Of a DNA stretch of 64,000 nucleotides, positions 37,838 to 52,430 are shown piece by piece. This DNA is from Eubacteriales bacterium (GTDB taxonomy: Bacteria; Bacillota; Clostridia; Oscillospirales; CAG-382). Location of the stretch: contig JAZOTA010000081.1 in the NCBI GenBank assembly GCA_045657425.1, positions 3,504-67,503 of the forward strand, in the 5' to 3' direction. The position numbers and the translations under genes were made by a program. Below the pieces are notes generated by a model. It had not been told where the DNA came from and ran no database searches. It saw only the letters and a program-made list of their open reading frames with translations. Position 1 is the stretch's first letter. Every line of letters begins with the position of its first letter.

Positions 37838-40800
37838 ATGTCAAACAAAAGGATTTCGACAAGAACAAAAAAGGAAATAATGATCGCAATATTGCTTACG
37901 GCGTGTCTGCTGCTCGGCTTTGTTGTGATGCTTGTTGTCGAGGATAAGGTAGGTACGCCGATATTCTACGACGGCGAAATGAAAAACATAAACGTTGTTA
38001 TTAACGAAATTTGCTCGAGCAATAAATCGATAATCGCAACCGACGGTGGCGAATATCCCGACTATATCGAGTTTTACAACAAGGGCGAAACCTTTAACCT
38101 TGCCGATTTCGGTTTGGCAAACGATACGAACAATAACGTAGAGTACACATTCGGCGATTATATTTTCGAATCGGGCAGTTATCTTATCGTTTATCTCGAC
38201 GGAGTAAACGTGCCCTTCCGCCTTAATTCAAACGGAGAAGAATATATCTCGCTGATTTCGTGGGACGGCACTGTTATCGACAGCGCAACCACCGTTAAAA
38301 CAAACAGCGATAACGTAATGCTTCGCACCAAGGACGGCTTTGAGGTTTCCGACCTTGCATCGCCCGGATATCCCAACACAGAAGAGGGTGTGCGTTTATT
38401 CCGCGCAGGCGTATTGGACGGTAGCATGGCTTTGGCGATAAACGAAATTTTCGCGGCAAACGATTCGGTATTGCCCGATTTCGAGGGTGATTATTGCGAT
38501 ATTATCGAAATCAAGAACGTTTCCTCGGCAATCGTTTCCACAAAGGGTTATTATATTTCCGACACGCAGACCGACAAATTACGTTGTGCTTTACCCGAAA
38601 AAGAGCTTGCGCCCGGTGAAATGATGCTTGTCTTTGCATCGGGCAAGGAAACAATTACCGAAAACGGCGAATTCCACGCAGATTTCAAGATTTCTGTTGA
38701 TGAAGAAATTTTCATTTCGCATGGCTCGAAATATACAAAGCAGCCTGCAACGAAATGCGAAAGCAACAATTCTCTTTCTCGCGTTAACGGCGAAAACGGC
38801 ATTGAATACGTTGAAATGTTCGCAACACCCGGATATGAAAACAACGAAAGCGGACGTGAAGAGCTTGACAATTCGCGTATCAATTCCGAATACCCGTTGG
38901 TCATCAGCGAGCTTCTGCTATCGCAGGACGGCGTACCTTACGGCGGAAAGGTTCGCGACGTTATCGAGATTTGCAACGTTTCCAAGGAAACGGTTTCGAC
39001 AAGCAGATGGTTTGTAAGCGATTCGCAGGATGACCCTTATAAATACGACCTGCCCGACCGCGACCTTGCTCCGAATGAATGTATGCTGATTTACGCAGAA
39101 AACGGCAGTGGCGAAAACGTTTGCGGCTTTGCGCTTTCCTCGGGCGAGGCGGTTTATTTGACAGGTCCCGACTTCAAGAGAAGCGAAGCGGTTTCCTGCG
39201 TGGAGGCAGGCAGAGGATTTTCGCGCAGTTATATCGTTGAAAACGGCGAAGCTATCTACGTCGATTCCGAAATAAGCATCGGCTTCGCAAACGGAAATGA
39301 CGGTGTTAAAGCATACGAAAAGGCGATCCGCCCGACCGATATTGAAATAAGCGAGGTCGTATCCTCCAACTCAAAATACCTTGCAGGTCCTTATAAGACC
39401 TATCACGATTTTGTCGAGCTTCACAACCTTACCGACAAGGAAATCGACCTTACCGGCTATTACCTTTCCGACGACCCCGAGCAGGTAAGAAAGGGTTCTC
39501 TTGACGGAGTAAAGATTCCCGCAAACGGTTACGTTTGCATCATCCTCTCGACCGACGGAGTCAACACGCCCGAGGGATATCACGTTGTCAGCTTCGGCAT
39601 CAACGCATCGGGCGAAACGCTTGTGCTTGCAAAGGGCGATACGGTGACAGACTTTGCGGTCATCCCGTCGCTCGGCAGAAACACTGCGTTCGGCAGAGCA
39701 AACGGCGAAGACGGATTTACCATCCTTGCATCGCCCACCCCTAACGAAAAAAATTCAGCCCGTGCGACCGAAACCACCGCAACTCCCCAATCCTCACTTC
39801 CACAAGGCGTTTATTCCGAGGGAATTACGGTTGAGCTTCAAGGCGACGGCGCAATATATTACACGCTCGACTGCAGTGAGCCTACTGCCGATTCGCCCTT
39901 ATACACCGAACCGATAAGGATCGACTCGACAACGGTTATCCGCTGTCTTGCGATTGAAGACGGCAAAAAGCCGAGCGGCTATACCAATTTCACCTTTATC
40001 GTTAACGAAAACGATACGCTTGAAGCGGTTTCGATAGTCACAACACCCGAAAACCTTTGGGACTATTACACCGGTATTTACGCAGACGGCCCGAATGCAA
40101 ACCCGGAGTTCCCCCACGCAGGCGCAAACTATTACAAGCGTTGGGAGCGCGAAGCAACCGTTACGTTTTTTGATAAAAACGGCGGCGGATTCGATGAAAA
40201 ATGCGGATTGCGCATTTTCGGCGGTCTTTCACGCGGATTCCCCAAAAAATCCTTTGCCGTTTTCTTCCGTAAGTCATACGGAAACGGCGAGCTTGATTAT
40301 GAGCTTTTCGAGGGCGAGTCGCTTAAGCAATTTGAATCGTTTGTTTTGCGAAACGACGGTCAGGCAATCAGATCCTCAAAAATGAAGGATGCGATGCTCG
40401 AAGACCTCGCGCACAAATATCTCGGCCTTGACACGCAAGGTACCCGCCCTGCGGTCCTGTACCTCAACGGCGAGTATTGGGGACTTTATATAATCCGCGA
40501 AAAGCTTAACGAGCATTACGTTGCAGGACATTATAACGTCGACGCAAGCGAGGTTACCGTTGCAGTCGGTCACGGCAAAACAAGCACCCAATATACCGAT
40601 TTACTTCAGTTTGCGCACACCCACGACCTGAGCATTCAAGAGCATTACGACTATATGAAGTCGCAAATGGATATTGAAAACTATATTGATTATTTTGTTA
40701 CCGAAATGATCCTCGCCAACCCCGACAACGGCAATATCCGATTTTTCACCTATGAGGGCGGAAAATGGCGTTGGATACTGTACGACGTCGACCAAGCGTT

Positions 40801-41185
40801 CACCTCACCGGGATATAATGCTGTTTCGGAGCATTTGAACCTTGCAGGCACGGGCAGCGGCAATATGTTTTCCACAAAGCTTATCAACGCTCTGCTCAAA
40901 AACCCCGAATTCAAGGATAAATTCCTCCGTGAAATAGCATATCAGCTGAACAACGTCTGGACAGTCGAAATCGTCAATTCCTACATTGACACCTACGTCG
41001 ATATGATCGATGAGGATATCGAAAAGGAATGCATCCGTTGGGACGCAAAATACAGCAACTGGGAAAAATCGCTTGAGGAAATGCGCAACTTTATCGCCAA
41101 ACGCGAAGAAAATATGATCCAGCACGTTCAGGCGTATTTTGGCCTTTCCGACGAGCAGATGCGCGACCTCGGCTTTAAAATATAA
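37838..41185 (+). CDS. Membrane-anchored CotH-family kinase with four lamin-tail domains and an FN3-associated domain
   Basis: Four I[NS]E...D.[IV]E.N lamin-tail repeats, YYTLD.SEPT, LRIFGG.SR..PKKSF, LNGEYWGLY..RE, NPD.GN, WRWILYD.D. Confidence 0.85.
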   Translation: MSNKRISTRTKKEIMIAILLTACLLLGFVVMLVVEDKVGTPIFYDGEMKNINVVINEICSSNKSIIATDGGEYPDYIEFYNKGETFNLADFGLANDTNNNVEYTFGDYIFESGSYLIVYLDGVNVPFRLNSNGEEYISLISWDGTVIDSATTVKTNSDNVMLRTKDGFEVSDLASPGYPNTEEGVRLFRAGVLDGSMALAINEIFAANDSVLPDFEGDYCDIIEIKNVSSAIVSTKGYYISDTQTDKLRCALPEKELAPGEMMLVFASGKETITENGEFHADFKISVDEEIFISHGSKYTKQPATKCESNNSLSRVNGENGIEYVEMFATPGYENNESGREELDNSRINSEYPLVISELLLSQDGVPYGGKVRDVIEICNVSKETVSTSRWFVSDSQDDPYKYDLPDRDLAPNECMLIYAENGSGENVCGFALSSGEAVYLTGPDFKRSEAVSCVEAGRGFSRSYIVENGEAIYVDSEISIGFANGNDGVKAYEKAIRPTDIEISEVVSSNSKYLAGPYKTYHDFVELHNLTDKEIDLTGYYLSDDPEQVRKGSLDGVKIPANGYVCIILSTDGVNTPEGYHVVSFGINASGETLVLAKGDTVTDFAVIPSLGRNTAFGRANGEDGFTILASPTPNEKNSARATETTATPQSSLPQGVYSEGITVELQGDGAIYYTLDCSEPTADSPLYTEPIRIDSTTVIRCLAIEDGKKPSGYTNFTFIVNENDTLEAVSIVTTPENLWDYYTGIYADGPNANPEFPHAGANYYKRWEREATVTFFDKNGGGFDEKCGLRIFGGLSRGFPKKSFAVFFRKSYGNGELDYELFEGESLKQFESFVLRNDGQAIRSSKMKDAMLEDLAHKYLGLDTQGTRPAVLYLNGEYWGLYIIREKLNEHYVAGHYNVDASEVTVAVGHGKTSTQYTDLLQFAHTHDLSIQEHYDYMKSQMDIENYIDYFVTEMILANPDNGNIRFFTYEGGKWRWILYDVDQAFTSPGYNAVSEHLNLAGTGSGNMFSTKLINALLKNPEFKDKFLREIAYQLNNVWTVEIVNSYIDTYVDMIDEDIEKECIRWDAKYSNWEKSLEEMRNFIAKREENMIQHVQAYFGLSDEQMRDLGFKI

Positions 41186-41202
41186 CGGGGAGGAAGATAA
41201 GA

Positions 41203-41871
41203 ATGGCTGAACGCAGAGAAGAAAAATATCTTATCAACTACTCGGAATATTCAATCATTTCAAACCGCATAAGGGCGCTTTTACAGCCCGATAAAAACGG
41301 CAAGAACGGCAAATATTCGATATGCTCGATGTATTTCGATGATGCCTTTGACACGGCACTTGCCGAAAAGGAAGACGGCAACGCGGTGCATATTAAATTC
41401 CGTATCCGCACCTATGACGGAAACGGTGATTTTATCCGTCTTGAACGAAAGACCAAGCGCGGAATAGTTACCGAAAAGCATTCGGCGCGTATAACAAAGG
41501 AAGAGCTTGAAAAAATTCTTTCGGGCGCACCGATAGACGAAGGAAGCGATTGCTTCGGACTCGTTGCGGAAATGCGTTCAAAGGCATTTAAGCCCGCAAT
41601 TTCGGTCAGATACGACCGCGAGGCATATTATATGCCGTCACTCGGAGTGCGAGTTACCTTTGATATCAATATCGATTCGTTACCGCCCGATGAGGAAACG
41701 CTTTTCGGCAACGTAAAACGGGCATTGCCTGCGATCGACCGCGGACAGATTATTATGGAAATTAAATATTCCGACCGCTGTCCGTCGTTTATCCGCAAGG
41801 CGTGTGCGACAAACAGCGCGCAGCTTTCGGTTTCAAAATACGCACTTTGCAGAAATGCACCGACGATATAA
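41203..41871 (+). CDS. VTC-domain (polyphosphate polymerase / CYTH-like) protein
   Basis: R.EEKY, S.YFD, KFRIRTY, LERK.K, YDREAY, RVTFD, EIKY, SKY. Confidence 0.88.
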   Translation: MAERREEKYLINYSEYSIISNRIRALLQPDKNGKNGKYSICSMYFDDAFDTALAEKEDGNAVHIKFRIRTYDGNGDFIRLERKTKRGIVTEKHSARITKEELEKILSGAPIDEGSDCFGLVAEMRSKAFKPAISVRYDREAYYMPSLGVRVTFDINIDSLPPDEETLFGNVKRALPAIDRGQIIMEIKYSDRCPSFIRKACATNSAQLSVSKYALCRNAPTI

Positions 41872-41890
41872 CTTTTAAAGGAGAAACAAA

Positions 41891-42556
41891 ATGAGTATTT
41901 TAGATGCAATAAAAAAGAGTGTTCTGGAGGGATTTTCTTCCGAAATAACCCTTGCCGACATTATCATTTCGCTTATCGTAGCGTTTCTTTCGGGACTTTT
42001 TATTCTGATCGTCTACCGCCTTACCCTGCGCGGTGTTTCGAGAAACAGAACCTTTGAGGCAACCCTGCTTCTCGTTACCCCCGTTTCGGCAATGATAGTT
42101 CTTACCATTACCTCGAACCTTGCGCTCTCGCTCGGTATGGTCGGTGCTCTTTCGATAATCCGTTTCCGTACCGCTCTCAAGGATTCAAGCGACACTGCAT
42201 TTATGTTCTGGGCGGTTGCGGCAGGTATCACCGCAGGCGCACACTTTTACAAGATCACGGTAATCGGCTGTCTTTTCATCGGTCTTGCCGCTTTCATCGT
42301 AATCAAGCTCACCTCGACCGGCGCACGCCCCTATCTTCTTGTTGTACGTGCAAACAGCGACAAGGCAATCGATTACACCGCACGTCTTCTTAACGAGAAC
42401 AACATAAAGAACCGCCTTTCGTCGCTCGTCGACAACGGCGATTACAGCGAGGTTATTTACGAAATCGCGCTCCGTGGCAACCACCAAAAGCTTACGGGCG
42501 CGCTCAAAAACCTCCCCGACGTTATAAGCGTTTCGCTCGTTGACTGCAGAAATTAA
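41891..42556 (+). CDS. DUF4956 membrane protein
   Basis: SNLALSLGMVGALSIIRFRTA.KD..D..FMFWA.A.G. Confidence 0.88.
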   Translation: MSILDAIKKSVLEGFSSEITLADIIISLIVAFLSGLFILIVYRLTLRGVSRNRTFEATLLLVTPVSAMIVLTITSNLALSLGMVGALSIIRFRTALKDSSDTAFMFWAVAAGITAGAHFYKITVIGCLFIGLAAFIVIKLTSTGARPYLLVVRANSDKAIDYTARLLNENNIKNRLSSLVDNGDYSEVIYEIALRGNHQKLTGALKNLPDVISVSLVDCRN

Positions 42557-42569
42557 GAAAGAAATTAAA

Positions 42570-42595
42570 AAAGAGGAGCCAAATGGCTCCTCTTT
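42570..42595. terminator. Bidirectional terminator
   Basis: AAAGAGGAGCC-AAAT-GGCTCCTCTTT. Confidence 0.75.
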
Positions 42596-42599
42596 ATCA

Positions 42600-42803
42600 T
42601 TATTTATCGTCTGTCAGCCCGACAAGATAATCGATGCTGGTTTTATAAAGCTTGGCGAGCTTTATCATTACTTCCAAGGGAACGGCTCGCTCTCCTCGCT
42701 CATATTTCGAATACAAAGATTGATCGCACATAAGATATTTTGCAACAAAGCTTTGCGTATAATCATTGTCCTCTCGCATATCGCGTATACGTAATTTCAT
42801 CAT
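42600..42803 (-). CDS. XRE-family HTH regulator
   Basis: RIRDMRED.DYTQ..VA.YL...QS.YSKYERGER..P...LA..Y.TSIDYLVG. Confidence 0.9.
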   Translation of the reverse strand: MMKLRIRDMREDNDYTQSFVAKYLMCDQSLYSKYERGERAVPLEVMIKLAKLYKTSIDYLVGLTDDK

Positions 42804-42842
42804 AATCACCTACTTCAATATACAACAAAACCTTTTTCGCTA

Positions 42843-42871
42843 TTGACAAATAGGACCATTTGTCCTATATT
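42843..42871 (+). promoter_or_regulatory. Sigma-A promoter with an embedded palindromic candidate operator
   Basis: TTGACA-N17-TATATT; ATAGGAC-CATTT-GTCCTAT palindrome at 42850-42868. Confidence 0.7.
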
Positions 42872-42892
42872 AGGTCATGGGAGGTGATTTTA

Positions 42893-43033
42893 ATGCCTGA
42901 TTATAAGAAAATGTATTTTGCGCTTTTTAATGAATTAACAGACGCTATCGAAAAACTTAAAGAGGCGCAAAGGCGTTGCGAGGAGCTTTATATTTTTTAT
43001 GAAGGCGACGATGAGGACGAAAAAGCAGATTAA
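42893..43033 (+). CDS. 46-aa acidic protein (absent from the ORF track)
   Basis: GGAGGTG RBS; MPDYKKMYFALFNELTDAIEKLKEAQRRCEELYIFYEGDDEDEKAD*. Confidence 0.75.
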   Translation: MPDYKKMYFALFNELTDAIEKLKEAQRRCEELYIFYEGDDEDEKAD

Positions 43034-43040
43034 CGGCAAG

Positions 43041-44126
43041 TCAATCTGCTTGCTTCTTTTTCGTTTCCAAAACACGCATTAAAATAATCGCGCCCAACGG
43101 GAAAATAAAAAGCCCCAAAAGTCCCAACAATTTAAGCCCGATATACATCGATGCAAGTGCGGCAATCGGCGGAAGTCCGATAAATTTACCGACGATTTTC
43201 GGCTCGACGACCTGACGGATTATGGTTATCAAAACATAGGTCACCAAAATCCCTGCACCCAAGCCGTAATTGCCCATAATCAAAAGAATTATTCCCCACG
43301 GAATAAGCACGGTACCCGTACCGAGCACGGGCAGAAAATCGACAAGCGCGATAACAAGCGCAAGGACAAAGGAATAATCGACGCCCAAAACGACAAACGC
43401 AAGCAAAAGCTCGCCAAACGTGATGAAGAAAAGCAGACCGTAAGCACGAATATATTTCCCCACCGTGTTCGCCAAAACGTCACGCGTGTTTTTTAGGGCA
43501 GGTCGAAACCTTTCGGGGAAAAGCGAAAGGAAAAAGCTGTTTATTTTAACACGGCCGATTGCGAAATAATAGGTTGCGATTATAACGACCGCCGTTGTGA
43601 AAAGCGCGTTGGGCAAAAAAGCCACCGCCGAGCCCATAATCGAAACGAGTCCGCCCGTTATATTTTCGCCGAAGCCGACAAGCATTCCCCAAAGCTCCTC
43701 GTCGAGATTGCTTCGCATCGCCCAAAGCTTATCGCGAAGGTCAACAAAGGGTATCATATCGCAAATCTTGTCGATTGTTTCGTGGGCATAACCGTCATCG
43801 GTGCGGATAAGCGCAACCGTTTCTTTAATGTTGTCGGCGAGGTCGGTTATTTCCAAAACTATCTGTCTGCCGATTGCGTAAATCAAGCCCACCATCGATG
43901 CCGCCGCCAAAAACACGACGAAAAGAACGCAAAATTTTTTCGGGAACTTTTTGTGCGTTTCGGAATATTTAACTATCGGGCGGAAGCACTCGGCAAATAT
44001 ATAGGCGATGATAAACGGCAAAATCGCCGTCCACAAAAAATTGAAAACAATATATATCGCGGCGATTGCCACCGCAGCGTACATTGTTATGACAGCGAAG
44101 CGCTTGTAGGGCTCGTTCGGAAGCAA
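43041..44126 (-). CDS. ytvI: Sporulation integral membrane protein YtvI (AI-2E family)
   Basis: LPFIIAY, DFLPVLGTGTVLIPW, RQVVEPKIVG..IGL.P; TTG start 44126 after GGAGTG. Confidence 0.85.
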   Translation of the reverse strand: MLPNEPYKRFAVITMYAAVAIAAIYIVFNFLWTAILPFIIAYIFAECFRPIVKYSETHKKFPKKFCVLFVVFLAAASMVGLIYAIGRQIVLEITDLADNIKETVALIRTDDGYAHETIDKICDMIPFVDLRDKLWAMRSNLDEELWGMLVGFGENITGGLVSIMGSAVAFLPNALFTTAVVIIATYYFAIGRVKINSFFLSLFPERFRPALKNTRDVLANTVGKYIRAYGLLFFITFGELLLAFVVLGVDYSFVLALVIALVDFLPVLGTGTVLIPWGIILLIMGNYGLGAGILVTYVLITIIRQVVEPKIVGKFIGLPPIAALASMYIGLKLLGLLGLFIFPLGAIILMRVLETKKKQAD

Positions 44127-44228
44127 AAATACCACTCCAAAAATACAGTTTTCAATATTATATGGAAAATGATAGAAAATAAATCCCAAAAAAGCTAAAT
44201 TATTTCGCAAAACAATTAAATTTTTGTG

Positions 44229-44257
44229 TTGACATTGTCGATTTACTGTGATATAAT
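44229..44257 (+). promoter_or_regulatory. Sigma-A promoter of tRNA-Ser
   Basis: TTGACA-N17-TATAAT with TG extension. Confidence 0.85.
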
Positions 44258-44291
44258 AATCAAGCGCGATTGAGCGTGAAGTTAATAATAC

Positions 44292-44382
44292 GGAGAAGTC
44301 GCTTAGCTGGTCGAGGGCGCACGACTGGAAATCGTGTAACGGATAAAACCGTTCGAGAGTTCGAATCTCTCCTTCTCCGCCA
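44292..44382 (+). tRNA. tRNA-Ser(GGA)
   Basis: GGAGAAG/CTTCTCC acceptor stem, CACGA-CTGGAAA-TCGTG anticodon arm, long variable arm, GTTCGAATC T-loop, encoded CCA. Confidence 0.96.
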
Positions 44383-44419
44383 AACAAAAACCACCCAATC
44401 GGGTGGTTTTTTGTTTGGC
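44379..44419 (+). terminator. Terminator hairpin after tRNA-Ser
   Basis: GCCAAACAAAAACCACCC-AATC-GGGTGGTTTTTTGTTTGGC. Confidence 0.8.
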
Positions 44420-44425
44420 TTTTGA

Positions 44426-44560
44426 AGAGATTCGAAGGGCGTGAGCCTTACAGTCCGGGGGACTGTAAGGGTAGCCCAGCGGAGCAGACCGCAACGGAAG
44501 AGGCGCGGAGCGCCGTTTGGAGTTGCATGGGGCTGCGGAGGAATCTCTCCTTCTCCGCCA
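44426..44560 (+). repeat. tRNA-linked module A, copy 1: antisense T-arm, shared hairpin, duplicated tRNA 3' end
   Basis: AGAGATTCGAA (44426-44436) is the reverse complement of tRNA 44360-44370; hairpin CCTTACAGTCC-GGG-GGACTGTAAGG at 44446-44470; 44541-44560 is identical to tRNA 44363-44382. Confidence 0.85.
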
Positions 44561-44601
44561 AAAAATACTGCAGAATGTATTCTATTCTGCAGTATTTTTT
44601 T
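44560..44601. terminator. Second terminator-like hairpin after the duplicated CCA
   Basis: AAAAAATACTGCAGAAT/ATTCTGCAGTATTTTTT. Confidence 0.75.
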
Positions 44602-44784
44602 ATCCAAGTCGCAGACTTGGCATATCATCCACCGCAAGGTGGTATATCATCAATAACGGCAAGCCGTTATTGTATATCATCACGCTTCAGCGTGCATTTC
44701 TCTGCGACTTGATGATATACAACACTCCGCGTTGATGATATGCAATGCTCCGCATTGATGATATACAAGGCTTTCGCCTTGATT
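44601..44784. ncRNA. tRNA-linked module B, copy 1: structured TATATCATC / TGATGATAT repeat element
   Basis: Three forward and three reverse-complement 9-10 nt repeats, each followed by a hairpin; covaries with the copy at 52430-52613. Whether it acts as RNA or ssDNA is not established. Confidence 0.65.
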
Positions 44785-44806
44785 TATTTGCAAAATATGG
44801 TATAAT
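44779..44806 (+). promoter_or_regulatory. Outward promoter at the end of module B
   Basis: TTGATT-N16-TATAAT with TGn extension, followed by AAGGAGGAG RBS. Confidence 0.65.
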
Positions 44807-44828
44807 ACCCCCAAGGAGGAGTGATATT

Positions 44829-45176
44829 ATGCCTAAAAACTATTTACTTATATATTCGGAGCAGCTTGCTACCGAAATAGAATTGCTTTGTCAAAATATA
44901 AAAGCTCCTTCAAATACTTTATTCCAAATACGCAAAAGCTCAAGCAGTATTTATGCAAATATTCGTGAAGCGAATTATGGACAGAGTAAGTCCGATATGA
45001 TTTCAAAGTTTGAAATAGCTCTCAAGGAATGTAGCGAAACCGAAGGATGGCTTAAACTGCTGGTTAACACAAACGCCATTGACGAAACAACATTTAATAA
45101 GTACCGAAATCTTTGCGGAAGAATCAGACGGATGTTGATTTCAAGTTGCAAAACCTTGAAGGATAACCTAAAATAA
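44829..45176 (+). CDS. Four-helix-bundle protein (23S rRNA IVP / Avd-like family)
   Basis: QIRKSSSSIYANIREA...S..D...KFEIALKECSET..WL signature; 115 aa from ATG 44829; AT-rich. Confidence 0.88.
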   Translation: MPKNYLLIYSEQLATEIELLCQNIKAPSNTLFQIRKSSSSIYANIREANYGQSKSDMISKFEIALKECSETEGWLKLLVNTNAIDETTFNKYRNLCGRIRRMLISSCKTLKDNLK

Positions 45177-45203
45177 AATCATAAATCCAAAAGGAGGTAA
45201 AAA

Positions 45204-45680
45204 ATGACAATTGAACAGGCGATATATTTCAAGGTTTTACTTTCAAACGGATATACGGAAGAAGTGCTTCAATACGTAAATACTTCACTCGATACTCAAA
45301 GCACGTTAAGTGATGTTGTTTTGGAGCTTTCCTATGCAGGAAACGACAGAGAAAAGCTTATCTCGATATTGAGCGAATATCTTATCGAAGTAAAAAATGA
45401 CGAAATCGACTTCGACGGCAAGCTGATCGATATGTTTTTGGCGTTTTTTCGCAGAAAATACAGAGAAGAAAATATGCCGCTCGACGAGCTTGTAACAGTT
45501 ATGCACAGCTGTGCGATGTGCTATTCCAATCTTTATAATGTGTTTGGCAACTCGCTTTGGTATACAATGTATATATTAGATGAATGCTATGAGTTTGGCG
45601 AAAGGACGCATTTCTTACAAATGCTTAACGACTTTTTAGATTATAAAAAACCGATGCGCTTTTCTGATTTTTGTTCTTGA
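45204..45680 (+). CDS. AT-rich hypothetical protein
   Basis: AAGGAGG RBS; acidic, probably helical protein; no family recognised. Confidence 0.7.
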   Translation: MTIEQAIYFKVLLSNGYTEEVLQYVNTSLDTQSTLSDVVLELSYAGNDREKLISILSEYLIEVKNDEIDFDGKLIDMFLAFFRRKYREENMPLDELVTVMHSCAMCYSNLYNVFGNSLWYTMYILDECYEFGERTHFLQMLNDFLDYKKPMRFSDFCS

Positions 45681-45690
45681 GGTGACGACG

Positions 45691-46683
45691 ATGAACACAG
45701 ACCGACTCCAAACGCTTTTACAAAAAGGGCTTGACGAGGGCGCATATTCCTGCTATGCGGCGGCTGTGGGATGTAAAGACGAAATTTTCTTTAAAGCCGT
45801 CGGCGGAAAAAGTGCGATTCTTCCGCAGGAAAAGGAAATGTCCGAGGATACCCTTTTCGATATGGCTTCGCTTTCAAAGCTTATCGGCACGACTATGGCG
45901 GCTTTGAAAATGATCGATCTTGGCAAAATTTCGCTAACCAACAAAATGAGCGACTTTTTCGGTGATTGCCACGGCAAGGAAAACACCACGATTTTTCAGT
46001 TGATGACACACACCTCGGGAATAAAGGCGCATTTCCCTCTTTGGCTTCGCGGAATCGCGCCGAGCGATGCGGCAAAGGAGATTCTGCGCGAGCCGTTTGG
46101 GTACACGCCCGAAAGCAACGCCGTTTACACCTGCATGGGGTATATACTGCTTGGCAGGATTCTTGAAAAAATCGAAGGTCAACCGCTTGACAGTATAGTG
46201 CAAAAATACGTTTTCGACCCGTTGGGAATGAAAAACAGCTTTTACAATCCGCCTATCGACAAGCTTTGTGCCGCGACCGAGAAGAGCGCGGTTACGGGCG
46301 AGATAATTTGCGGCAGCGTACACGACGAGAATGCCTATTTTTTGAACGGAATTTCGGGCAACGCGGGGATTTTTTGCAGTCTTGACGATTGTATTACCTT
46401 TGCCAAAATGATTTCAAACGGCGCGAAAGGTTACCTTTCGGATGAGATTTTCAAAGCGGCTACAACAAATTACACACCGCAGTTTGAGGAAAACCGCGGA
46501 CTCGGATTTAATATTGTCGGCAACCGTTACGGACACACGGGCTTTACGGGTACGGCGATATACGTCGGCAGAGATAGCGGAATTTACGCTATATTGCTCA
46601 CAAACCGAGTTCACCCGACAAGAAACAACGGCAAGCTTTTCCCAATAAGGAACGAATGGCATAAAGAGATTTTCGGTGAATGA
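45691..46683 (+). CDS. Beta-lactamase-fold serine hydrolase (AmiE/YbbE-like)
   Basis: FDMASLSK (SxxK), LMTHTSG, Y.C.GY, VHDENA, GHTGFTG, LTNRVHP. Confidence 0.88.
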   Translation: MNTDRLQTLLQKGLDEGAYSCYAAAVGCKDEIFFKAVGGKSAILPQEKEMSEDTLFDMASLSKLIGTTMAALKMIDLGKISLTNKMSDFFGDCHGKENTTIFQLMTHTSGIKAHFPLWLRGIAPSDAAKEILREPFGYTPESNAVYTCMGYILLGRILEKIEGQPLDSIVQKYVFDPLGMKNSFYNPPIDKLCAATEKSAVTGEIICGSVHDENAYFLNGISGNAGIFCSLDDCITFAKMISNGAKGYLSDEIFKAATTNYTPQFEENRGLGFNIVGNRYGHTGFTGTAIYVGRDSGIYAILLTNRVHPTRNNGKLFPIRNEWHKEIFGE

Positions 46684-47833
46684 TATGAAAAAAGCCATAG
46701 TTTTAAACGGCATCGACCGTATTGACGAGTATTTTGAATTGCTCGACGGGCTTAAAATCGGTCTTATAACCAACCCGACGGGCAGAAACAAGGATTTTAA
46801 GGAAACGGCGGATATTCTTGCCGAAAAAGGACTTCTTTGCTGTCTTTTCTCGCCCGAGCACGGTGTTCGAGGCGGTGCGACGGCAGGCGCGCATATTTCC
46901 GACTGCATCGACGAAAAAACGGGTGTGCCGAGCTACAGTCTTTACGGCGCATCACTTCACATCCGCGACGAGGTTTTAAAGGGGCTTGATGCGGTTGCGT
47001 TTGACATTCAGGACGTCGGCGCAAGGTTTTACACCTATATTTATACCCTTTCCTATGCTATGGAGGATTGCGCCAAGGCAGGAAAGCGATTTATTGTTTT
47101 CGACCGAATCAATCCCGTCGGCGGTGTTTGTCCGCAGGGCAGTGTGCTTGACAGAAAATTTTCGTCGTTTGTGGGCAGATATTCGACCGCAACGCGCCAT
47201 AATCTTACCGTCGGCGAATTTGCGCGTTTTATTAACGAAACCGAAGGAATCGGCTGTGACCTTACGGTAATACCCGTAAAGGGCTGGACACGCGAGATGT
47301 TTTTTGATGAAACCGACCTTGTATTTATTCCGCCGTCGCCGAATATTCCGACGGTTGAATGCTGTTTTGCCTATCTTGCGACCTGCCTTTTCGAGGGCAC
47401 GAATATTTCGGAGGGACGCGGTACGGCAAAGCCGTTCGAGTTTATCGGCGCACCTTGGCTCGATCACGAAATAATTGCAGAAAAGATGAATGCACTTCAT
47501 CTTCAAGGCGTTAAATTCCGCCCCTGCTTTTTTACCCCGACCACTTCAAAGCACGCAAATACCGAATGCAAGGGTATTCAGCTTCATATAACCGACCGCA
47601 AAAGCTTTAACCCCTTTGAATCGGGCTTGCGCTTGCTTAATTTGATACGCAACACCCACAAGGAATTTGAATTTATTGCGCCCTATTCGCAAAATTCGCA
47701 TTATTTTATCGACCTGCTTTTGGGCAGCGACGAATTGCGAAACCAAAATTTTGATGTTGATAAATTCTTAACGGCGCAAAAAGAAAAGCTAAAAGAATAC
47801 CAAGAGATAATAGAAAGATATTATTTGTATTAA
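46676..47833 (+). CDS. DUF1343 / NamZ-like exo-beta-N-acetylmuramidase
   Basis: GLITNPTG, FSPEHG, FDIQDVGARFYTY, DRINP, PSPNIP, EGTNISEGRGT..PFE..GAPW. Confidence 0.9.
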   Translation: MNDMKKAIVLNGIDRIDEYFELLDGLKIGLITNPTGRNKDFKETADILAEKGLLCCLFSPEHGVRGGATAGAHISDCIDEKTGVPSYSLYGASLHIRDEVLKGLDAVAFDIQDVGARFYTYIYTLSYAMEDCAKAGKRFIVFDRINPVGGVCPQGSVLDRKFSSFVGRYSTATRHNLTVGEFARFINETEGIGCDLTVIPVKGWTREMFFDETDLVFIPPSPNIPTVECCFAYLATCLFEGTNISEGRGTAKPFEFIGAPWLDHEIIAEKMNALHLQGVKFRPCFFTPTTSKHANTECKGIQLHITDRKSFNPFESGLRLLNLIRNTHKEFEFIAPYSQNSHYFIDLLLGSDELRNQNFDVDKFLTAQKEKLKEYQEIIERYYLY

Positions 47834-47838
47834 AGAAA

Positions 47839-47863
47839 ATACGGGAGAAATTCTCCCGTATTC
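47839..47863. terminator. Hairpin after the NamZ-like gene
   Basis: AATACGGGAGA-AAT-TCTCCCGTATT. Confidence 0.6.
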
Positions 47864-47868
47864 AGCTT

Positions 47869-48079
47869 GCAGACTGAGAGAAATGAGGCTGTTTTTAATG
47901 AAAAGCGAGCGTAGACGTAGAAATCTACGGTAGTCGAGCTTTTCATTAAAACCCTTGAAAATACAATAAAAATTAAAATTCCTTATAAAAATCAAGAGTT
48001 CTTCCGATGTAAACGAAAGAACTCTTTTTTGTTGTTTTTTCTTTCAAGGGTGTAAACAGACCATTTGTCCGCGGTCTGC
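47869..48079. mobile_element. Putative MITE / highly structured non-coding element (~210 bp)
   Basis: Imperfect terminal inverted repeats GCAGACTG...CTGTTT and AAACAG...CGGTCTGC; three internal perfect stems of 10-14 bp. Confidence 0.5.
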
Positions 48080-48080
48080 T

Positions 48081-49886
48081 TTAATTAAACTGTGAATTAT
48101 AAAGCGTACTGTAAAATCCGCCCTTTTTGAGCAATTCCTCGTGATTGCCGATTTCGGTAATTCTGCCGTCCTGAAGCACGATTATCTTGTCGGCATTTTG
48201 AATCGTCGAAAGTCGGTGCGCAATGATAAAGCAGGTACGGCCCTTCATCAGTTCGCTCATCGCCTCTTGAATCTTTATCTCGGTGCGCGAGTCGACGTTT
48301 GAGGTCGCCTCGTCGAGAATGAGCATTTGCGAATCGGCAATCATCGCACGTGCGATGGTAATAAGCTGACGCTGTCCCTTCGAGATGTTAACGCCGTCAT
48401 CGGTAAGGACGGTGTCATAGCCGTCGGGCAGGCTTTCGATAAAGCTGTCTATCCTTGCGGCGCGTGCGGCGGCTTTTACCTCGTCAAGCGTTGCGCCCTC
48501 ACGTCCGTAGGCGATATTTTCGTAAATAGTACCGCAAAACAGCCAAGTGTCCTGAAGCACCATTGTGTATGCTTTTCTCAACGAATCACGTGTGATTTCT
48601 CGCTCGTCGATGCCGTCGACGGTGATTTTTCCGTCGTTTACGTCGTAAAAACGCATAAGAAGTGAGATTATCGTCGTTTTGCCTGCGCCTGTTGGGCCGA
48701 CTATCGCAACGGTTTTACCCTGAAGCGCATCGAACGATATGCCGTGAAGAATTTCTTTTTCGGGGGTATAGCCGAATTTAACGTCTGTAAATTCAACGTC
48801 ACCCTTTGCTCTTTCAAGCGTGATTGCATTTTCGGAATCCTTCGGCTCGGGCTGTTCGTCGAGAATTGCAAAAACACGGTCGGCGGCAGAAAATGCCGAT
48901 TGGAATTCCGAAATGATGTTTGCAAATTCGTTTATCGGGCCGGCAAACTTGCGCGAATACTGAACAAACTGCGCCACACCGCTTAATGAGATGAAAAACA
49001 GAGATCCAACCGCCGCAACTCCGCTTTGCGAATACATATAAAGTATTCCGCCGAACATCGTAACTAACGATATCGAAATATTGTTGATAAAGTTAACCGA
49101 CGGGCCCATTGCCGCGCCGTAATAGTCCGCCTCGTAATAGGCATCCATCGAATCGGTGTTGCGCTTGTTAAAGCGCGCGCCTATTTCGTTTTCACGCTCG
49201 TAAGCACGGATTGTACCGCAGCCCGAAAGCATTTCCTCGGCATAGCCGTTCAACTCGCCAAGCTTTTTCGAGCGTCTTCTGAAAAGCGGACGCACTCGCT
49301 TTGCACGATAGCGTGTAAAGAGAATCGATGCAGGCACGGTGATAAGAAATACGGCAATCAACGGCTTCGATATATTCCACATAAAGATAAGCGAGCCGAT
49401 GACGGTGTAAAGACTCGTCATAACCTGAACCAAATCGTGCGAGAGAGTTGAGTTTATCGTATCGATATCGTAGGAAATGTGGCTTATAATGTCACCTGTC
49501 GGGTGAGTGTCGAAATAGCCGACGGGCAGTGACGTAAGCTTTTCAAAAAGCTGTTTACGCATTGTGTAAACTATTTTTTGGCTCAGCTTTATCATAATGA
49601 CCGCCAAAAGATAGGATATCACCGCAGAGATGACGTAACAGCCGAGCATATAAAGCACGTTTTCGGCAACAGCTTCCTTATCGACACCGCCCTCGGCAAC
49701 GATTGCATCGATGGCAAGTCCCGAAAATTTAGGTCCCAAAAGCGAAAGCAGATTTGCGCAGAAGGTCATCAATACCGCAGGGATGAAGATGTACCAATAC
49801 TTTAAAACGTATCCGCAAAGACGTAAAAGGATGCCCTTTGTGTTTCTTTCCTGCTTGGTTTCGTTAGGTTTATTCAACGAAAGCAC
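48081..49886 (-). CDS. ABC exporter, fused TMD-NBD subunit B
   Basis: GPTGAGKT, ISKGQRQ, ILDEATS, IAHRLST. Confidence 0.93.
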   Translation of the reverse strand: MLSLNKPNETKQERNTKGILLRLCGYVLKYWYIFIPAVLMTFCANLLSLLGPKFSGLAIDAIVAEGGVDKEAVAENVLYMLGCYVISAVISYLLAVIMIKLSQKIVYTMRKQLFEKLTSLPVGYFDTHPTGDIISHISYDIDTINSTLSHDLVQVMTSLYTVIGSLIFMWNISKPLIAVFLITVPASILFTRYRAKRVRPLFRRRSKKLGELNGYAEEMLSGCGTIRAYERENEIGARFNKRNTDSMDAYYEADYYGAAMGPSVNFINNISISLVTMFGGILYMYSQSGVAAVGSLFFISLSGVAQFVQYSRKFAGPINEFANIISEFQSAFSAADRVFAILDEQPEPKDSENAITLERAKGDVEFTDVKFGYTPEKEILHGISFDALQGKTVAIVGPTGAGKTTIISLLMRFYDVNDGKITVDGIDEREITRDSLRKAYTMVLQDTWLFCGTIYENIAYGREGATLDEVKAAARAARIDSFIESLPDGYDTVLTDDGVNISKGQRQLITIARAMIADSQMLILDEATSNVDSRTEIKIQEAMSELMKGRTCFIIAHRLSTIQNADKIIVLQDGRITEIGNHEELLKKGGFYSTLYNSQFN

Positions 49887-51591
49887 CTCCCATCTGGGAT
49901 TCGCTTATTTCGCGGTATTCCTCGCAGCCCTCAAGCAAGTCGCTGTGGTTGCCCATACCGATAATTTCGCCCTCGTCGAGCACGATGATAATATCGCAGT
50001 CCTTAACCGAGCTTACACGCTGTGCGACGGTAATAACCGTTGTGTCGCCAAGGTTTTCGGCAAGTGCCGCCCTTAATGCGGCATCGGTTTTGTAATCGAG
50101 CGCCGACGACGAATCGTCGAGTATCAAAATTTCGGGCTTTGACGCAAGCGCGCGTGAAATAAGTATTCTTTGCTTCTGACCGCCCGAAATATTGCTTCCG
50201 TGCGGTGTGAGTAGGTGGTTATAACCGTCGGCAAAATCGGTGATAAAGCCATCTGCTTGCGCTGTTTTGGCGGCAAGAATTATCGATTCGTCATCGATTT
50301 CCCTGCCAAAGCGGATGTTTTCGGCAACAGTATCGGCATAAAGAAAGTCCTGCTGCATCGCCGAGCCAAACATTGCGTAAAAACGCGATTTTTCAATGGT
50401 TTTTATGTTTTCGCCGTTGATGAAGATAGCACCCTTATTGCAATCGTAAAATCTGAGCAGTAATTTTATCAAGGTCGTTTTGCCCGAGCCGGTCGCGCCG
50501 ATTATACCGAGCCGACCGCCCTTCGGAAGCGAGAAGGATATGTTGTTCAAATTGTCCTTTACGCCCTTGTAGGAGAAGGAAACGTTATCGAACACAATGT
50601 GATTTTCGTCAGCCTTATCGGGAAATTCGGTCTTTTCGCAGACCTTAATGTCCTCATCGGCATCGAAAACCTCGGTTATGCGTCGTGCAGATGCCGCGCA
50701 CTTTGTGTACATAACGAACATTCGCGTTACCGACATCATCGCCATGGAAATAAGCGTGAAATACTGCATAAACGCAACGATAGTTTCGGGGTCGGACAAG
50801 CCCGAATCGACTCTGCCGCTTGCAAGTGCGATAACGGCAACCGAGCCGACGTTCATCAACACAGTCATTATCGGATTAACGCCGCCCATAACGATTCCCG
50901 CGCGTGTTTCGTCCTTGATAAGCGTGGAATTGACCGCATCGTATCGGCGGTGCTCGTAATCGGTCTTTGAAAGCGCCTTGATAACGCGGATACCTTGGGC
51001 ATCCTCACGCACGACGCGAATCATGCCGTCGACAGATTTTTGCACCTTGGTGTGAAGCGGCACACCCTTTTTCGATATGAAATAAACGGTAATAAAAATA
51101 AAGGGAAGCACGGCAATCATTGCGAGCGCAAGATATGCGTCCATAAAAAGCGTTATACCGATGCCGCCGATGAGCATAATGGGCGCACGAACGCCCAAGC
51201 GTTGCATCATATTCACAAAGTGGTGAACGTTATAGGTATCGGTCGTAATGCGCGATTCAAGCGACGGAATCGTGAAATTATCGGTCTGCGCAGCCGAAAG
51301 GCGAAGCGTTTTGATAAACAGATCCTTTCGCATATTTTCGGCGAAATTACGCGAAACGCGCGCCGCCATTCGGTTTGCGATTATGTTGCACACGCAGGCG
51401 GTAACGGCACAAATAAGCATAACACCGCCCCACAAAAGGATGTCGTGCACCGATTTTGTGATGACGTTTTTAAGGATATGCGTAAGAATATACGGTATCA
51501 AAAGCTCGACGACCGTGCCCGTCATTTTAATCAAAAATCCGACAGTCATTCGCCGATAAAAACCGCTTAGATATTTAAAAACTATTTTCAT
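49870..51591 (-). CDS. ABC exporter, fused TMD-NBD subunit A (degenerate site)
   Basis: GATGSGKT, ISGGQKQR, ILDDSSSALD, VAQR: heterodimer-type degenerate motifs. Confidence 0.93.
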   Translation of the reverse strand: MKIVFKYLSGFYRRMTVGFLIKMTGTVVELLIPYILTHILKNVITKSVHDILLWGGVMLICAVTACVCNIIANRMAARVSRNFAENMRKDLFIKTLRLSAAQTDNFTIPSLESRITTDTYNVHHFVNMMQRLGVRAPIMLIGGIGITLFMDAYLALAMIAVLPFIFITVYFISKKGVPLHTKVQKSVDGMIRVVREDAQGIRVIKALSKTDYEHRRYDAVNSTLIKDETRAGIVMGGVNPIMTVLMNVGSVAVIALASGRVDSGLSDPETIVAFMQYFTLISMAMMSVTRMFVMYTKCAASARRITEVFDADEDIKVCEKTEFPDKADENHIVFDNVSFSYKGVKDNLNNISFSLPKGGRLGIIGATGSGKTTLIKLLLRFYDCNKGAIFINGENIKTIEKSRFYAMFGSAMQQDFLYADTVAENIRFGREIDDESIILAAKTAQADGFITDFADGYNHLLTPHGSNISGGQKQRILISRALASKPEILILDDSSSALDYKTDAALRAALAENLGDTTVITVAQRVSSVKDCDIIIVLDEGEIIGMGNHSDLLEGCEEYREISESQMGGAFVE

Positions 51592-52237: not shown

Positions 52238-52238
52238 C

Positions 52239-52277
52239 GAAAAAACAAACCTCACTTTATGTGGGGTTTGTTTTTTT
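52239..52277 (+). terminator. Terminator hairpin after tRNA-Glu
   Basis: GAAAAAACAAACCTCAC-TTTAT-GTGGGGTTTGTTTTTTT. Confidence 0.8.
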
Positions 52278-52289
52278 GTCTTGCAACTT

Positions 52290-52387
52290 GGGAGTCGAAG
52301 GGCGCGTGTTGAATGACAGTCCGGGGGACTGTCAGACCGCGCCACCGCTCCGCCCCGAAGGGCGGGCGACTCCCCTACGGGTCACCA
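52290..52387 (+). repeat. tRNA-linked module A, copy 2
   Basis: GGGAGTCGAA (52290-52299) is the reverse complement of tRNA 52215-52224; hairpin TGACAGTCC-GGG-GGACTGTCA at 52314-52334; 52367-52387 is identical to tRNA 52217-52237. Confidence 0.85.
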
Positions 52388-52430
52388 AAAAAGAAGTAAC
52401 TTTTGTCTACCAAAAGTTACTTCTTTTTTT
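52387..52430. terminator. Second terminator-like hairpin after the duplicated CCA
   Basis: AAAAAAGAAGTAACTTTTG-TCTAC-CAAAAGTTACTTCTTTTTT. Confidence 0.75.

Follow-up and report, generated by a model that had tools for sequence, protein, structure and literature searches.

A probable family of tRNA-linked-repeat-type elements in uncultured gut bacteria and the host-matched helix that closes them

Known tRNA-linked repeats and two clostridial loci

Repeats that end in a copy of the stable-RNA gene lying just upstream, known as tRNA-linked repeats (TLRs), were found in E. coli as early as 1978, and the tRNA-linked members are still without an accepted origin or function (PMC8144298). According to the same source, TLRs end in 18-19 nt of the 3' end of the upstream gene, while RrA, RrB and RrF have a dual-terminator layout in which the element sits between T1 and T2, and are reported to be made by T1 read-through (PMC8144298). 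The E. coli set that was used for comparison consists of the rtT/RttR units of tyrT-tyrV (Rfam RF00391) and of RrA, RrB and RrF behind rrnA, rrnB and rrnD. Like the clostridial element described below (module A), these TLRs immediately follow a stable-RNA gene and share its orientation, occur as tandem units and copy at their 3' end the last ~19-21 nt of the upstream gene. The likeness extends to folding. In the rtT units, GGGGAAGGAT is found ~95 nt before AATCCTTCCCCCACCACCA, and the Rfam RtT consensus structure has the same closing helix, formed by an upstream segment and the start of the copy, and a free CCACCA tail; the RtT helix does not extend past the copy. A literature search turned up PMC8144298 and a preprint in which rttR is merely named, but no paper on the clostridial family or on host tracking by the helix, within a coverage that leaves out most older subscription papers on TLRs.

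Other systems are also relevant. Integrases that target tRNA genes classically generate a direct repeat from the T-loop to CCA. Target choice by base pairing or folded single strands is used by group II introns (EBS/IBS), the guides of IS200/IS605 and the bridge RNA of IS110, and folded single-strand sites are exemplified by integron attC and the attP of CTX phage.

The window analysed here, a stretch of 64,000 nt from an Eubacteriales bacterium (contig JAZOTA010000081.1), contains two loci of interest, behind tRNA-Ser(gga) and tRNA-Glu(ctc), with the following features.

44292..44382, + strand: tRNA-Ser(gga), host gene (ARAGORN; Rfam tRNA, 53.3 bits)
44383..44418, + strand: terminator T1 of the Ser locus, a palindrome of A-run, hairpin and T-run reaching back onto CCA (from the sequence)
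44426..44436, + strand: antisense segment of the Ser locus, P1 5' strand AGAGATTC plus the invariant GAA
44437..44540, + strand: scaffold of the Ser locus (RNAalifold, single folds, covariation)
44541..44560, + strand: copy of tRNA-Ser nt 57-76 (20 nt), the first 8 nt being the P1 3' strand
44561..44601, + strand: terminator T2 of the Ser locus, found directly 3' of the tRNA in the orthologous empty site L040
52163..52237, + strand: tRNA-Glu(ctc), host gene of the second copy (ARAGORN; Rfam)
52238..52289, + strand: terminator T1 of the Glu locus and spacer, the terminator being common to the Glu(ctc) loci of relatives
52290..52299, + strand: antisense segment of the Glu locus, P1 5' strand GGGAGTCG plus AA
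52300..52366, + strand: scaffold of the Glu locus, which belongs to the short subfamily and has a short P3 and, on P2, the 17-mer hairpin (52316-52332)
52367..52387, + strand: copy of tRNA-Glu nt 56-76 (21 nt), P1 3' strand CGACTCCC plus a free CCA-ended tail
52388..52430, + strand: terminator T2 of the Glu locus; module B lies beyond it

At the Ser locus, module A is separated from the tRNA by T1, and the same ACCACCC-type terminator lies immediately 3' of tRNA-Ser(gga) in relatives, with or without module A. The antisense segment AGAGATTCGAA (44426-44436) is the reverse complement of tRNA-Ser(gga) nt 54-64 (44360-44370), and its first 8 nt pair with GAATCTCT at 44541-44548. At the Glu locus, GGGAGTCGAA (52290-52299) is the reverse complement of tRNA-Glu(ctc) 52215-52224, and GGGAGTCG pairs with CGACTCCC at 52367-52374. 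GGGCG lies 3' of the antisense segment at both loci, and a 17-mer (44450-44466 and 52316-52332) is flanked by a T-A pair in one and a G-C pair in the other. All of this, including the CCA-ended copies, agrees with the original prediction, which had been made for these two loci. The 17-mer is indeed identical at both, but it is no hallmark of the family and was ruled out as a marker, having just these two sites in the genome; elsewhere the corresponding hairpin (P2a) keeps its shape with a different sequence, with double changes in 7/9 pairs.

The element family and its predicted fold

Module A is one copy of a repeat family with 7 strong copies in this genome and matches in 37 of 60 genomes of the genus, the carriers being a group of uncultured gut bacteria. 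The element is non-coding and 100-150 nt long. All copies have a tRNA or tmRNA gene directly 5' in the same orientation and end in a copy of the 3' end of that gene, which runs from T-loop nt 56/57 to CCA; where there is no full tRNA nearby, a tRNA 3' fragment or another copy precedes the element. All 66 distinct tRNA+element stretches that were collected are downstream of a tRNA or tmRNA gene on the same strand, a co-orientation that follows from the script, whose search was confined to the sequence 3' of each tRNA on its own strand. In 46 of these 66 the first 16 nt of nt 57-76 are copied exactly, the rest being decayed or cut by a contig end. The layout of the family is terminator T1, element, copy of the tRNA 3' end and second terminator.

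These features make module A a probable member of a lineage-specific family of TLR-type elements. It has the downstream position and the 3'-end identity (20 and 21 nt at the window loci) by which TLRs are described in PMC8144298. However, no sequence similarity to the E. coli repeats was detected, and RF00391 has no match at E<=1 in window positions 40000-56000, compared to 133-138 bits on four E. coli units, so the likeness to TLRs is one of design and not shown homology. The clostridial scaffold, a three-way junction with a GGG-loop hairpin, differs from E. coli TLRs, and the E. coli tyrT units, unlike the clostridial family, have no terminator between tRNA and unit. The clostridial family is also far larger (up to 12 matches per genome, 18 host T-arm variants) and, with its filled and empty orthologous sites, near-identical scaffolds and different tRNAs, gives much more comparative power than the E. 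coli TLRs.

The element is closed by a helix, P1, in which the antisense segment serves as the 5' strand and pairs with the initial 7-11 nt of the tRNA-end copy, which starts at T-loop nt 56/57. Since the 3' strand of P1 is host tRNA sequence, the 5' strand must be host-specific for the three-way junction to close. The 7 copies in this genome align and are predicted, by RNAalifold and single folds, to fold as P1, P2 and P3 with a free 3' tail, the three helices (P2 with its GGG-loop hairpin) forming a three-way junction with covariation in all of them. In the Ser-locus scaffold, P2 is a GGCG/CGCC-type helix that bears P2a, which is the 17-mer, P3 is a variable arm, and the copy beyond the P1 strand is a free tail with a CCA end. 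P1 has 7 bp in most copies and 10-11 bp in some hosts. On 42 copies P1 is 99.3% paired, with double changes in 5/7 pairs, and the whole structure is 95.7% paired vs 37-54% when slid, a value attained by 0/500 shuffles. Alignments A3 and A4 were fitted to the structural model, which biases them toward its structure.

On the tRNA-sense strand, 99 distinct copies have 53 G.U cells vs 38 A.C cells; 28 of the latter fall in one doubtful pair, without which the numbers are 47 and 10. This excess of G.U over A.C points to RNA, and by analogy with RrA, RrB and RrF the element may act as an RNA produced by T1 read-through. T1 itself resembles a strong terminator, which counts against an RNA reading. 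Non-CCA tails are present in 25/95 full-length distinct copies, and among these 25 P1 is 7/7 paired in 20 and 6/7 paired in 4. The CCA tail is dispensable, the conserved core of the design is the helix that unites antisense segment and tRNA-end copy, and the feature under selection appears to be P1 rather than the CCA end. Two pairing states had been proposed, one with the real tRNA and one with its duplicate, and both exist in predicted folds: the isolated element closes via P1, while in the minimum-energy fold of the read-through transcript the segment pairs with the real T-arm and P1 with the copy is left unclosed.

Host tracking and variation among relatives

Whether the segment follows the host T-arm had been set beforehand as the test of the original prediction, and it does. 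In the 66 stretches, which come from this genome and its relatives and cover 18 host nt 57-64 segments (tmRNA included), the 8 nt before GAA match the cognate host at 8/8 in 21, 7/8 in 43, 6/8 in 1 and 5/8 in 1, and thus at 7/8 or better in 64/66. The mean match is 7.3 for cognate hosts vs 5.2 for non-cognate ones. When compared with the other host types, the cognate host is strictly the best in 27 stretches, tied in 26 and worse in 13, the ties and losses arising because many T-arms differ by a single base. Shuffling at the level of host types never attained the observed sum of 129/144 (0/20000). The complementarity of the segment to the host tRNA is therefore more than chance, and with tracking shown the possibility of a constant segment that matches the T-arm by coincidence falls away.

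How far the complementarity reaches differs between elements. In the initiator tRNA-Met element the antisense segment is 20 nt long, matches at 19/20 and extends 13 nt past the duplicated part, which places 13 nt on the 5' side and 7 nt on the 3' side of the insertion junction. In the T-loop class of elements complementarity 5' of the junction is merely an invariant 2-3 nt: the GAA after P1 is complementary to T54-T55-C56, bases that the long-subfamily copy lacks. Neither this GAA complementarity nor the 20-nt tRNA-Met segment is predicted by the role of closing helix alone.

Orthologous loci are variably occupied. In L040, the tRNA is followed directly by T2 and module B, without the 178-nt block of the window. 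A full element is present at 15/28 assessable tRNA-Ser(gga) loci and 9/30 tRNA-Glu(ctc) loci, and 13/28 and 20/30, respectively, lack the element altogether. Different subtypes stand together in some tandem arrays (L042, L212 and L195), and inserted blocks of the short subfamily contain a repeat of the native terminator of the locus as well. Cores of the scaffold with 93-97% identity lie behind Arg, Leu(tag) and Gly tRNAs, with P1 differing at 1-4 of 7 positions on both strands and still paired at 7/7; with every change of host, the P1 helix is specified anew. In one pair of copies the 5' strand of P1 has changed at 4/7 positions and the scaffold core at 3/105, a rate ~20 times faster per site, which requires strong selection or a directed process. 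The family would spread, or have spread, by insertion at the tRNA 3' end, with factors presumably supplied in trans. If it is mobile, the view that the 5' strand of P1 is kept matched by selection after arrival has a chance that comes close to even but falls a little short of it, the alternative being a strand that serves as a guide or takes its sequence from the target.

Enzymes, carriers and competing explanations

This genome is 80% complete, which bounds all the enzyme negatives obtained in it. It has three matches to tyrosine recombinases, of which two were inspected and neither is at an element, and no integrase or recombinase adjoins the element in any locus whose flanks were read. Two large serine recombinases were found on contigs (C67 and C48) that are both without a strong element copy. 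Reverse transcriptase (PF00078), the DEDD recombinase of IS110 (PF02371) and Y2 have no match in the 80% that is covered, though the Y2 control was likewise silent, which leaves the Y2 blank uninformative. The original prediction had pointed to Y1 transposases, a link that did not hold up: the only IS200-like tnpA of the genome has no element beside it, and across the genus Y1 occurs in 13/38 genomes with the element vs 8/23 without it. An origin as a palindromic element derived from REP/RAYT or IS200/IS605 was rejected on the same grounds. The missing PF02371 match in the 80% covered likewise speaks against an IS110 bridge RNA, which would call for an adjacent DEDD/IS110 recombinase. At E<=1, Rfam has nothing on modules A and B in window positions 40000-56000 beyond tRNAs and weak chance rows, and no intron, ribozyme or retron family matches there. 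A retroelement (group II intron, retron or SINE-like) was discarded on this lack of an Rfam motif in the region scanned and of a reverse transcriptase match in the 80% of the genome covered. The idea that the scaffold is a decayed inverted tRNA was also dropped, no similarity being visible by eye outside the P1 strand. Among 2.9 million viral contigs, two specific patterns found 0 copies, and a loose pattern found at least 120 loci, of which 0/80 screened with a covariance model were confirmed.

The element and its host-matched segment can be explained in several other ways. The original prediction had suggested that the segment might be the trace of a template switch or of a hairpin-mediated insertion, or else a switch or decoy in tRNA maturation. 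It might also be a guide or a folded attachment site that pairs across the insertion point with nt 54-64 of the intact tRNA gene or transcript, P1 being a remnant of this pairing once insertion is complete and a changed guide giving access to new hosts. This is rather unlikely, although it would account for a good deal: the complementarity spans the junction, both through the GAA opposite T54-T55-C56 and through the 13 and 7 nt of the tRNA-Met element, the start of the copy always coincides with the start of P1, P1 is perfect in nearly all copies with mismatched intermediates absent, and in one pair of copies it is re-specified far faster than the core. The 7 bp that P1 has in most copies is the size of the overlap region of tyrosine recombinases, and the folding strand is the tRNA-sense one which, by reasoning, would also be the lagging-strand template for co-oriented genes. 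As in pairing-guided elements, a short segment that complements target sequence on either side of the junction varies with the target while the rest of the element is constant. However, the proteins that define those elements do not accompany the family: recombinases, reverse transcriptase, IS110 and Y2 had no association with it within the bounds given above, and Y1 is no commoner in genomes with the element. The GAA, being invariant, cannot show tracking, the E. coli RtT helix stops at the copy, and simple guided cut-and-paste does not predict a short-subfamily block that repeats its own terminator. Moreover, P1 is kept in old copies with decayed tails, which implies a role in place. A version that dispenses with proteins, in which the segment would be the internal guide of a small mobile RNA or ssDNA element pairing across tRNA nt 54-64 (nt 22-41 would be the target in initiator tRNA), is improbable. 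Such an element would be joined to the 3' part of the tRNA at the T-loop or anticodon loop and then fixed in DNA. If this were true, the TLR repeats of E. coli, of Clostridia and of other phyla would be traces left by a class of mobile elements that targets tRNAs by means of a guide and reached new hosts via guide changes.

Two further scenarios are less likely still. A switch or decoy in tRNA maturation, with the segment of a read-through transcript and the distal copy competing for the real T-arm and the 5' half of the tRNA, respectively, thereby modulating the yield of functional tRNA or titrating a processing enzyme, is quite improbable. Predicted minimum-energy folds of tRNA, T1, module A and copy at both window loci do pair the segment with real nt 54-64, and the 5' strands of the acceptor and T-stem with the distal copy, and they are far more stable than shuffled sequence (z -8.3 and -10.1). 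However, these are thermodynamic predictions, in a transcript that folds as it is made the tRNA would take shape first, most transcripts would not get past T1, the acceptor/CCA part that the alternative fold needs is the part that has decayed in 25/95 copies while P1 was kept, and nearly half of the tRNA-Ser(gga) loci and two-thirds of the tRNA-Glu(ctc) loci do without any element. It is highly improbable that the element is a gene-less remnant of integrase-borne islands (a CIME-like scar), with the copy as attR, the scaffold as a double-stranded attP arm and the inverted segment as a core-type binding repeat. With tRNA/tmRNA-targeting integrative elements, CIMEs and satellites the family shares the direct repeat from the T-loop to CCA, tmRNA among the hosts, tandem accretion and presence/absence at orthologous tRNAs; at tRNA-Ser(cga), a degenerate island of 5.2 kb that contains part of an integrase terminates in the final ~19 nt of a scaffold and the copy, and anticodon-loop islands lie upstream of some copies. 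Unlike these elements, the family measures only 100-180 bp overall, its inverted target copy lies ~100 nt from the direct one and not beside the crossover, and in some loci the duplicated stretch includes the native terminator. Covariation in the helices and a strand-specific G.U bias are unexpected for protein sites in duplex DNA, and neither a recombinase nor a parent with the same att arm was found in the loci read and the viral contigs. The original prediction had fairly remarked that an antisense copy is not what plain att duplication would lead one to expect.

In annotation work, elements of this kind account for 'duplicated tRNA ends' that might otherwise be mistaken for island borders, and whether TLRs are trailer RNAs released by processing, mobile elements whose target is read by base pairing, or both is now a testable question. 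No RNA run was listed among the sequencing data that contain the stretch, of which only small shares are present, in gut metagenome contigs. Four sequencing runs yielded fragments, and two contigs among them, given no weight because of their low depth and short sides, depart from the order of the window: one runs back 130 (44554 to 44425) and the other skips 129 (44412 to 44542).

Two tRNA loci and a repeat family behind tRNA genes

Behind both tRNA genes that ARAGORN finds in the window, the same elements follow in the same 3' order: a terminator hairpin (T1), module A (a structured repeat of 100-150 nt behind tRNA or tmRNA genes), a second terminator (T2) and module B, a repeat of ~185 nt.

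Features of module A and its host genes in the window
44292-44382: tRNA-Ser(gga) gene (ARAGORN)
44426-44436: antisense segment, Ser locus, AGAGATTCGAA, reverse complement of 44360-44370
44541-44560: tRNA 3'-end copy closing the Ser-locus module A, with final CCA
52163-52237: tRNA-Glu(ctc) gene (ARAGORN)
52290-52299: antisense segment, Glu locus, GGGAGTCGAA, reverse complement of 52215-52224
52367-52387: tRNA 3'-end copy closing the Glu-locus module A, with final CCA

At both loci, the antisense segment is directly followed by GGGCG and its first 8 nt pair with the beginning of the respective downstream tRNA-end copy; the pairings originally listed for the two segments, with the real tRNA and with the end copy, are correct base for base. 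Both loci also carry the same 17-mer hairpin, with a flanking pair that is T-A in one and G-C in the other. Downstream of the Glu locus lies an open reading frame of 2598 aa (53638-61434, minus strand).

Module A is one member of a family of repeats. ARAGORN finds 40 tRNA genes in the assembly to which the window belongs (87 contigs, 80% complete); nine of them have their last 16 nt repeated, with at most one mismatch, downstream or on a neighbouring contig, and further hosts of module-A-like elements are tRNA-Arg(acg), with a tandem pair, Gln(ctg), Ser(gct) and Leu(gag). A covariance model made from seven copies returned those seven in this assembly at E<=1e-19, together with three weak matches. 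Elsewhere in the genus it matched 37 of 60 genomes, with up to 12 matches in a single genome, and in other families of the order 6 of 40 genomes had weaker matches. When one genome per species was searched (185,579 species), a specific sequence pattern was found at 64 loci, all titled as uncultured Clostridia, Eubacteriales, Oscillospiraceae or Ruminococcus MAGs; where the title names a source, this is mostly a site in the ruminant gut. Neither this pattern nor a second one had any match in 2.9 million viral contigs.

Host tracking and fold of the antisense segment

The antisense segment had been predicted to be tailored to the T-arm of each host. Tracking was assessed by comparing the 8 nt before an invariant GAA with nt 57-64 of the upstream ARAGORN tRNA, the downstream copy being left unused, in 66 distinct stretches of tRNA plus element with 18 different host segments (Arg, Gln, Glu, Gly(ccc), Gly(gcc), Leu(cag, gag, tag), Met, Ser(cga, gct, gga), Trp and tmRNA). 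The segment follows the host in 64 of the 66, matching at all eight positions in 21 stretches and at seven in 43 (six in one, five in one), and the position most often unmatched is the eighth (nt 64). The mean match is 7.3 for cognate vs 5.2 for non-cognate hosts, and at one row per host type none of 20000 shuffles attained the observed sum (129/144), so that the segment is not constant whatever the host. Set against the other host types, the cognate host comes out ahead of all in 27 stretches, level in 26 and behind in 13; since T-arms are alike, the signal comes from the differing positions. The helix reaches 10-11 bp, extending into acceptor positions 65-66, in copies behind tmRNA, Leu(tag), Met and Trp.

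Copies of module A are predicted to fold as a three-way junction. In this fold, helix P1 pairs the antisense segment with the beginning of the tRNA-end copy, P2 (a helix of GGCG/CGCC type) bears a hairpin (P2a) with a GGG or GGT loop, P3 varies in length between copies, and the last 10-13 nt of the tRNA-end copy would stay unpaired up to the final CCA. Pairing amounts to 95.7% across 42 copies, vs 37-54% with slid partners, which are the fairer comparison because the alignment was fitted to the covariance model and so favours the structure; two-sided changes occur in 22 of 28 pairs, and the observed pairing values were attained in none of 500 column shuffles. The 17-mer, with only two occurrences in the assembly, is that genome's own version of P2a, seven of whose nine pairs covary in other copies.

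Among 99 distinct aligned copies there are 53 G.U vs 38 A.C cells. The fifth column pair of P2 alone accounts for 28 of the latter; with Watson-Crick bases in just 50 of 92 copies, it probably does not represent true pairing, and its removal leaves 47 G.U and 10 A.C cells. This excess of G.U points to the tRNA-sense strand as the one that folds, which would fit an RNA co-transcribed with the tRNA, or the sense strand as single-stranded DNA. Decay or truncation of the acceptor part has left 25 of 95 full-length distinct copies without the CCA end. Since the seven P1 pairs are intact in 20 of these 25 and six of them in another four, it is P1 that is maintained, not the CCA end.

Related repeats, probable movement and rival readings

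A similar arrangement exists in E. coli K-12, where each 178-bp unit at tyrT/tyrV has GGGGAAGGAT ~95 nt ahead of AATCCTTCCCCCACCACCA, i.e. as in module A an antisense segment opposite the start of the tRNA-Tyr end copy. The Rfam RtT model (RF00391) matches all four E. coli units at 133-138 bits, and its curated consensus structure has the same closing helix and free CCACCA tail. Of these tRNA-linked repeats (TLRs), PMC8144298 counts 22 at ten K-12 loci. [quoted passage not shown] The order of gene, T1, element, end copy and T2 is common to the window loci and the E. coli TLRs RrA/B/F (PMC8144298). Layout and closing helix are thus shared, but RF00391 had no match in the searched region of the window even at E<=1, so that module A is of the same kind by design rather than a member of the RtT family. 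It belongs to a known but unexplained kind of element, and the value of the family lies in its size and diversity, with which the origin of TLRs becomes testable.

Filled and empty sites could be compared among relatives. In a close relative (L040), the Ser(gga) ortholog has an upstream flank 98% identical; T2 directly adjoins the tRNA there, module B and the downstream gene are as in the window, and exactly 178 nt (44383-44560) are absent. L039, another relative (99%), shares the element but has a different module downstream of it, and in a third (L062) T1 is directly joined to that module, with no element. The element is present in 15 of 28 assessable tRNA-Ser(gga) loci; among 30 tRNA-Glu(ctc) loci, nine have it in full, 20 have none and one has the antisense segment and GAAGGGCG only. 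Tandem arrays reach three units and may mix subtypes (L042, L212, L195), whose order is reversed between L212 and L195. The direct repeat differs in extent among 49 loci: in ~30 it is the tRNA end only, in ~10 it stops near the end of the terminator T-tract, and in seven it spans terminator, spacer and antisense segment, which represent tandem or partial next units. Solo remnants, at array ends or alone (C87/L007, C53, L020, L237, L294, L049), run from a terminator through a spacer to an antisense segment and its GAAGGG(C), where unrelated sequence takes over, the break lying within 1-2 nt of one point in at least five independent loci. At a filled Glu locus (L282), compared with an empty one (L290), the insert comprises spacer, antisense segment, scaffold, a copy of nt 56-76 and a duplicate of the locus's own terminator; a simple att site borne by the element does not account for this.

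Elements behind Arg, Leu(tag) and Gly(gcc) tRNAs (three copies only) share 93-97% core identity, and in the closest pair 3 of 105 core columns differ, while both strands of P1 differ at four of seven positions without any loss of pairing. The reading we somewhat favour combines three parts: module A would be a TLR-type trailer element acting as a folded RNA, the antisense segment would be the 5' strand of its closing helix, host-specific because the opposite P1 strand is host tRNA sequence, and the family would have moved between tRNA genes. That the segment is instead a guide or attachment site seems rather unlikely, but this idea is kept alive by features exceeding what a mere closing helix needs: the invariant GAA lies opposite T54-T55-C56, missing from the copy in the long subfamily of module A; in a separate tRNA-Met element, the antisense stretch crosses the junction, with 13 nt on the unduplicated side; and P1 is re-specified much faster than the scaffold drifts. 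A switch or decoy, suggested solely by predicted folds in which the segment favours the real T-arm, seems unlikely. Among the sequencing runs listed for this stretch, none was of RNA. The original observation of a host-matched segment has been confirmed and generalised; its interpretation was partly right.

The assembly has three tyrosine-recombinase matches (a Xer-like gene, a gene in a Tn916-like excisionase context and a fragment in an island at tRNA-Ser(cga)), two large serine recombinases and a single Y1 transposase of IS200-like type, and this 80% complete genome had no match to a reverse transcriptase or an IS110 recombinase, absences that are weak evidence since the genomes are incomplete MAGs, from whose bins mobile elements are often missing. 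Among the genes whose surroundings were inspected, two of the tyrosine recombinases and the Y1 transposase, none adjoins an element, and the remaining recombinase matches are on contigs without a strong copy. Across the genus, Y1 is found in 13 of 38 genomes with the element vs 8 of 23 without. The Ser(cga) island is degenerate and 5.2 kb long (C74:22134-27378); its integrase fragment lies at 24519-24932 on the minus strand, and all that its right end retains of a module-A scaffold is the last ~19 nt, followed by a tRNA-end copy with one mismatch, a terminator and module B.

Module B and neighbouring elements

Module B lies at 44602-44785 and 52431-52614 in the window and on contigs C20, C44, C45, C52, C56, C70 and C74 of the same assembly, where at least nine copies all follow a tRNA 3' end, or a tRNA-end fragment, and a terminator. 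It always starts directly after the T-run (TTTTTTT|ATCCA...) and contains three TATATCATCA boxes, then three inverted TTGATGATATRCAA boxes, spaced by short hairpins with covarying stems; its ends are inverted repeats. It had no Rfam match; a structured RNA, a MITE and a protein-binding array are all conceivable. In relatives, the same site is occupied by other kinds of sequence (ATGAAG, GTGAAAT and GATATCC types). The product of the gene directly after it (44745-45176, plus strand) has 143 aa and belongs to the 23S rRNA-intervening-sequence family (PF05635, 68 bits, a match made for the window's own protein only). Behind tRNA-Ser(gga) and Glu(ctc), many relatives have a B-type module, then a TATAAT that resembles a promoter and an open frame that starts in a similar way.

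The tRNA-Met element is a different one of ~285 nt behind an initiator-like tRNA (C45:109457-109741, locus L005/L252). It ends in a 42-nt tRNA copy, from anticodon loop to CCA, and contains 20 nt antisense (19/20) to tRNA nt 22-41, which form a hairpin with a short sense copy placed after them. Homologues occur in 18 of 60 genus genomes and were seen solely behind that tRNA; some have the copy reduced to ~17 nt with the antisense segment kept. Past its second terminator (C45:109742-109830, and L258) most of the tRNA-Met 3' half is repeated in inverted, decayed form, as pieces of acceptor end, T-stem and anticodon arm, which makes the terminator the centre of a long imperfect palindrome.

A nested hairpin insert of ~40 nt, GGGGTCCCCGAAAATGAG...ATTTTTGGGG, is present in the second Arg copy of C49 and in L028, L012, L051 and L055; it occupies P3, the P2a loop or spacers of different module-A copies and looks like a very small mobile hairpin in its own right. 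Finally, an element behind tRNA-Pro(cgg) (C74:5656-5898, minus strand) has a tRNA copy from the variable loop or T-stem onward and a stretch antisense to nt ~45-56, repeats part of the anticodon arm in sense orientation, and matches the module-A model only weakly (E 0.016).
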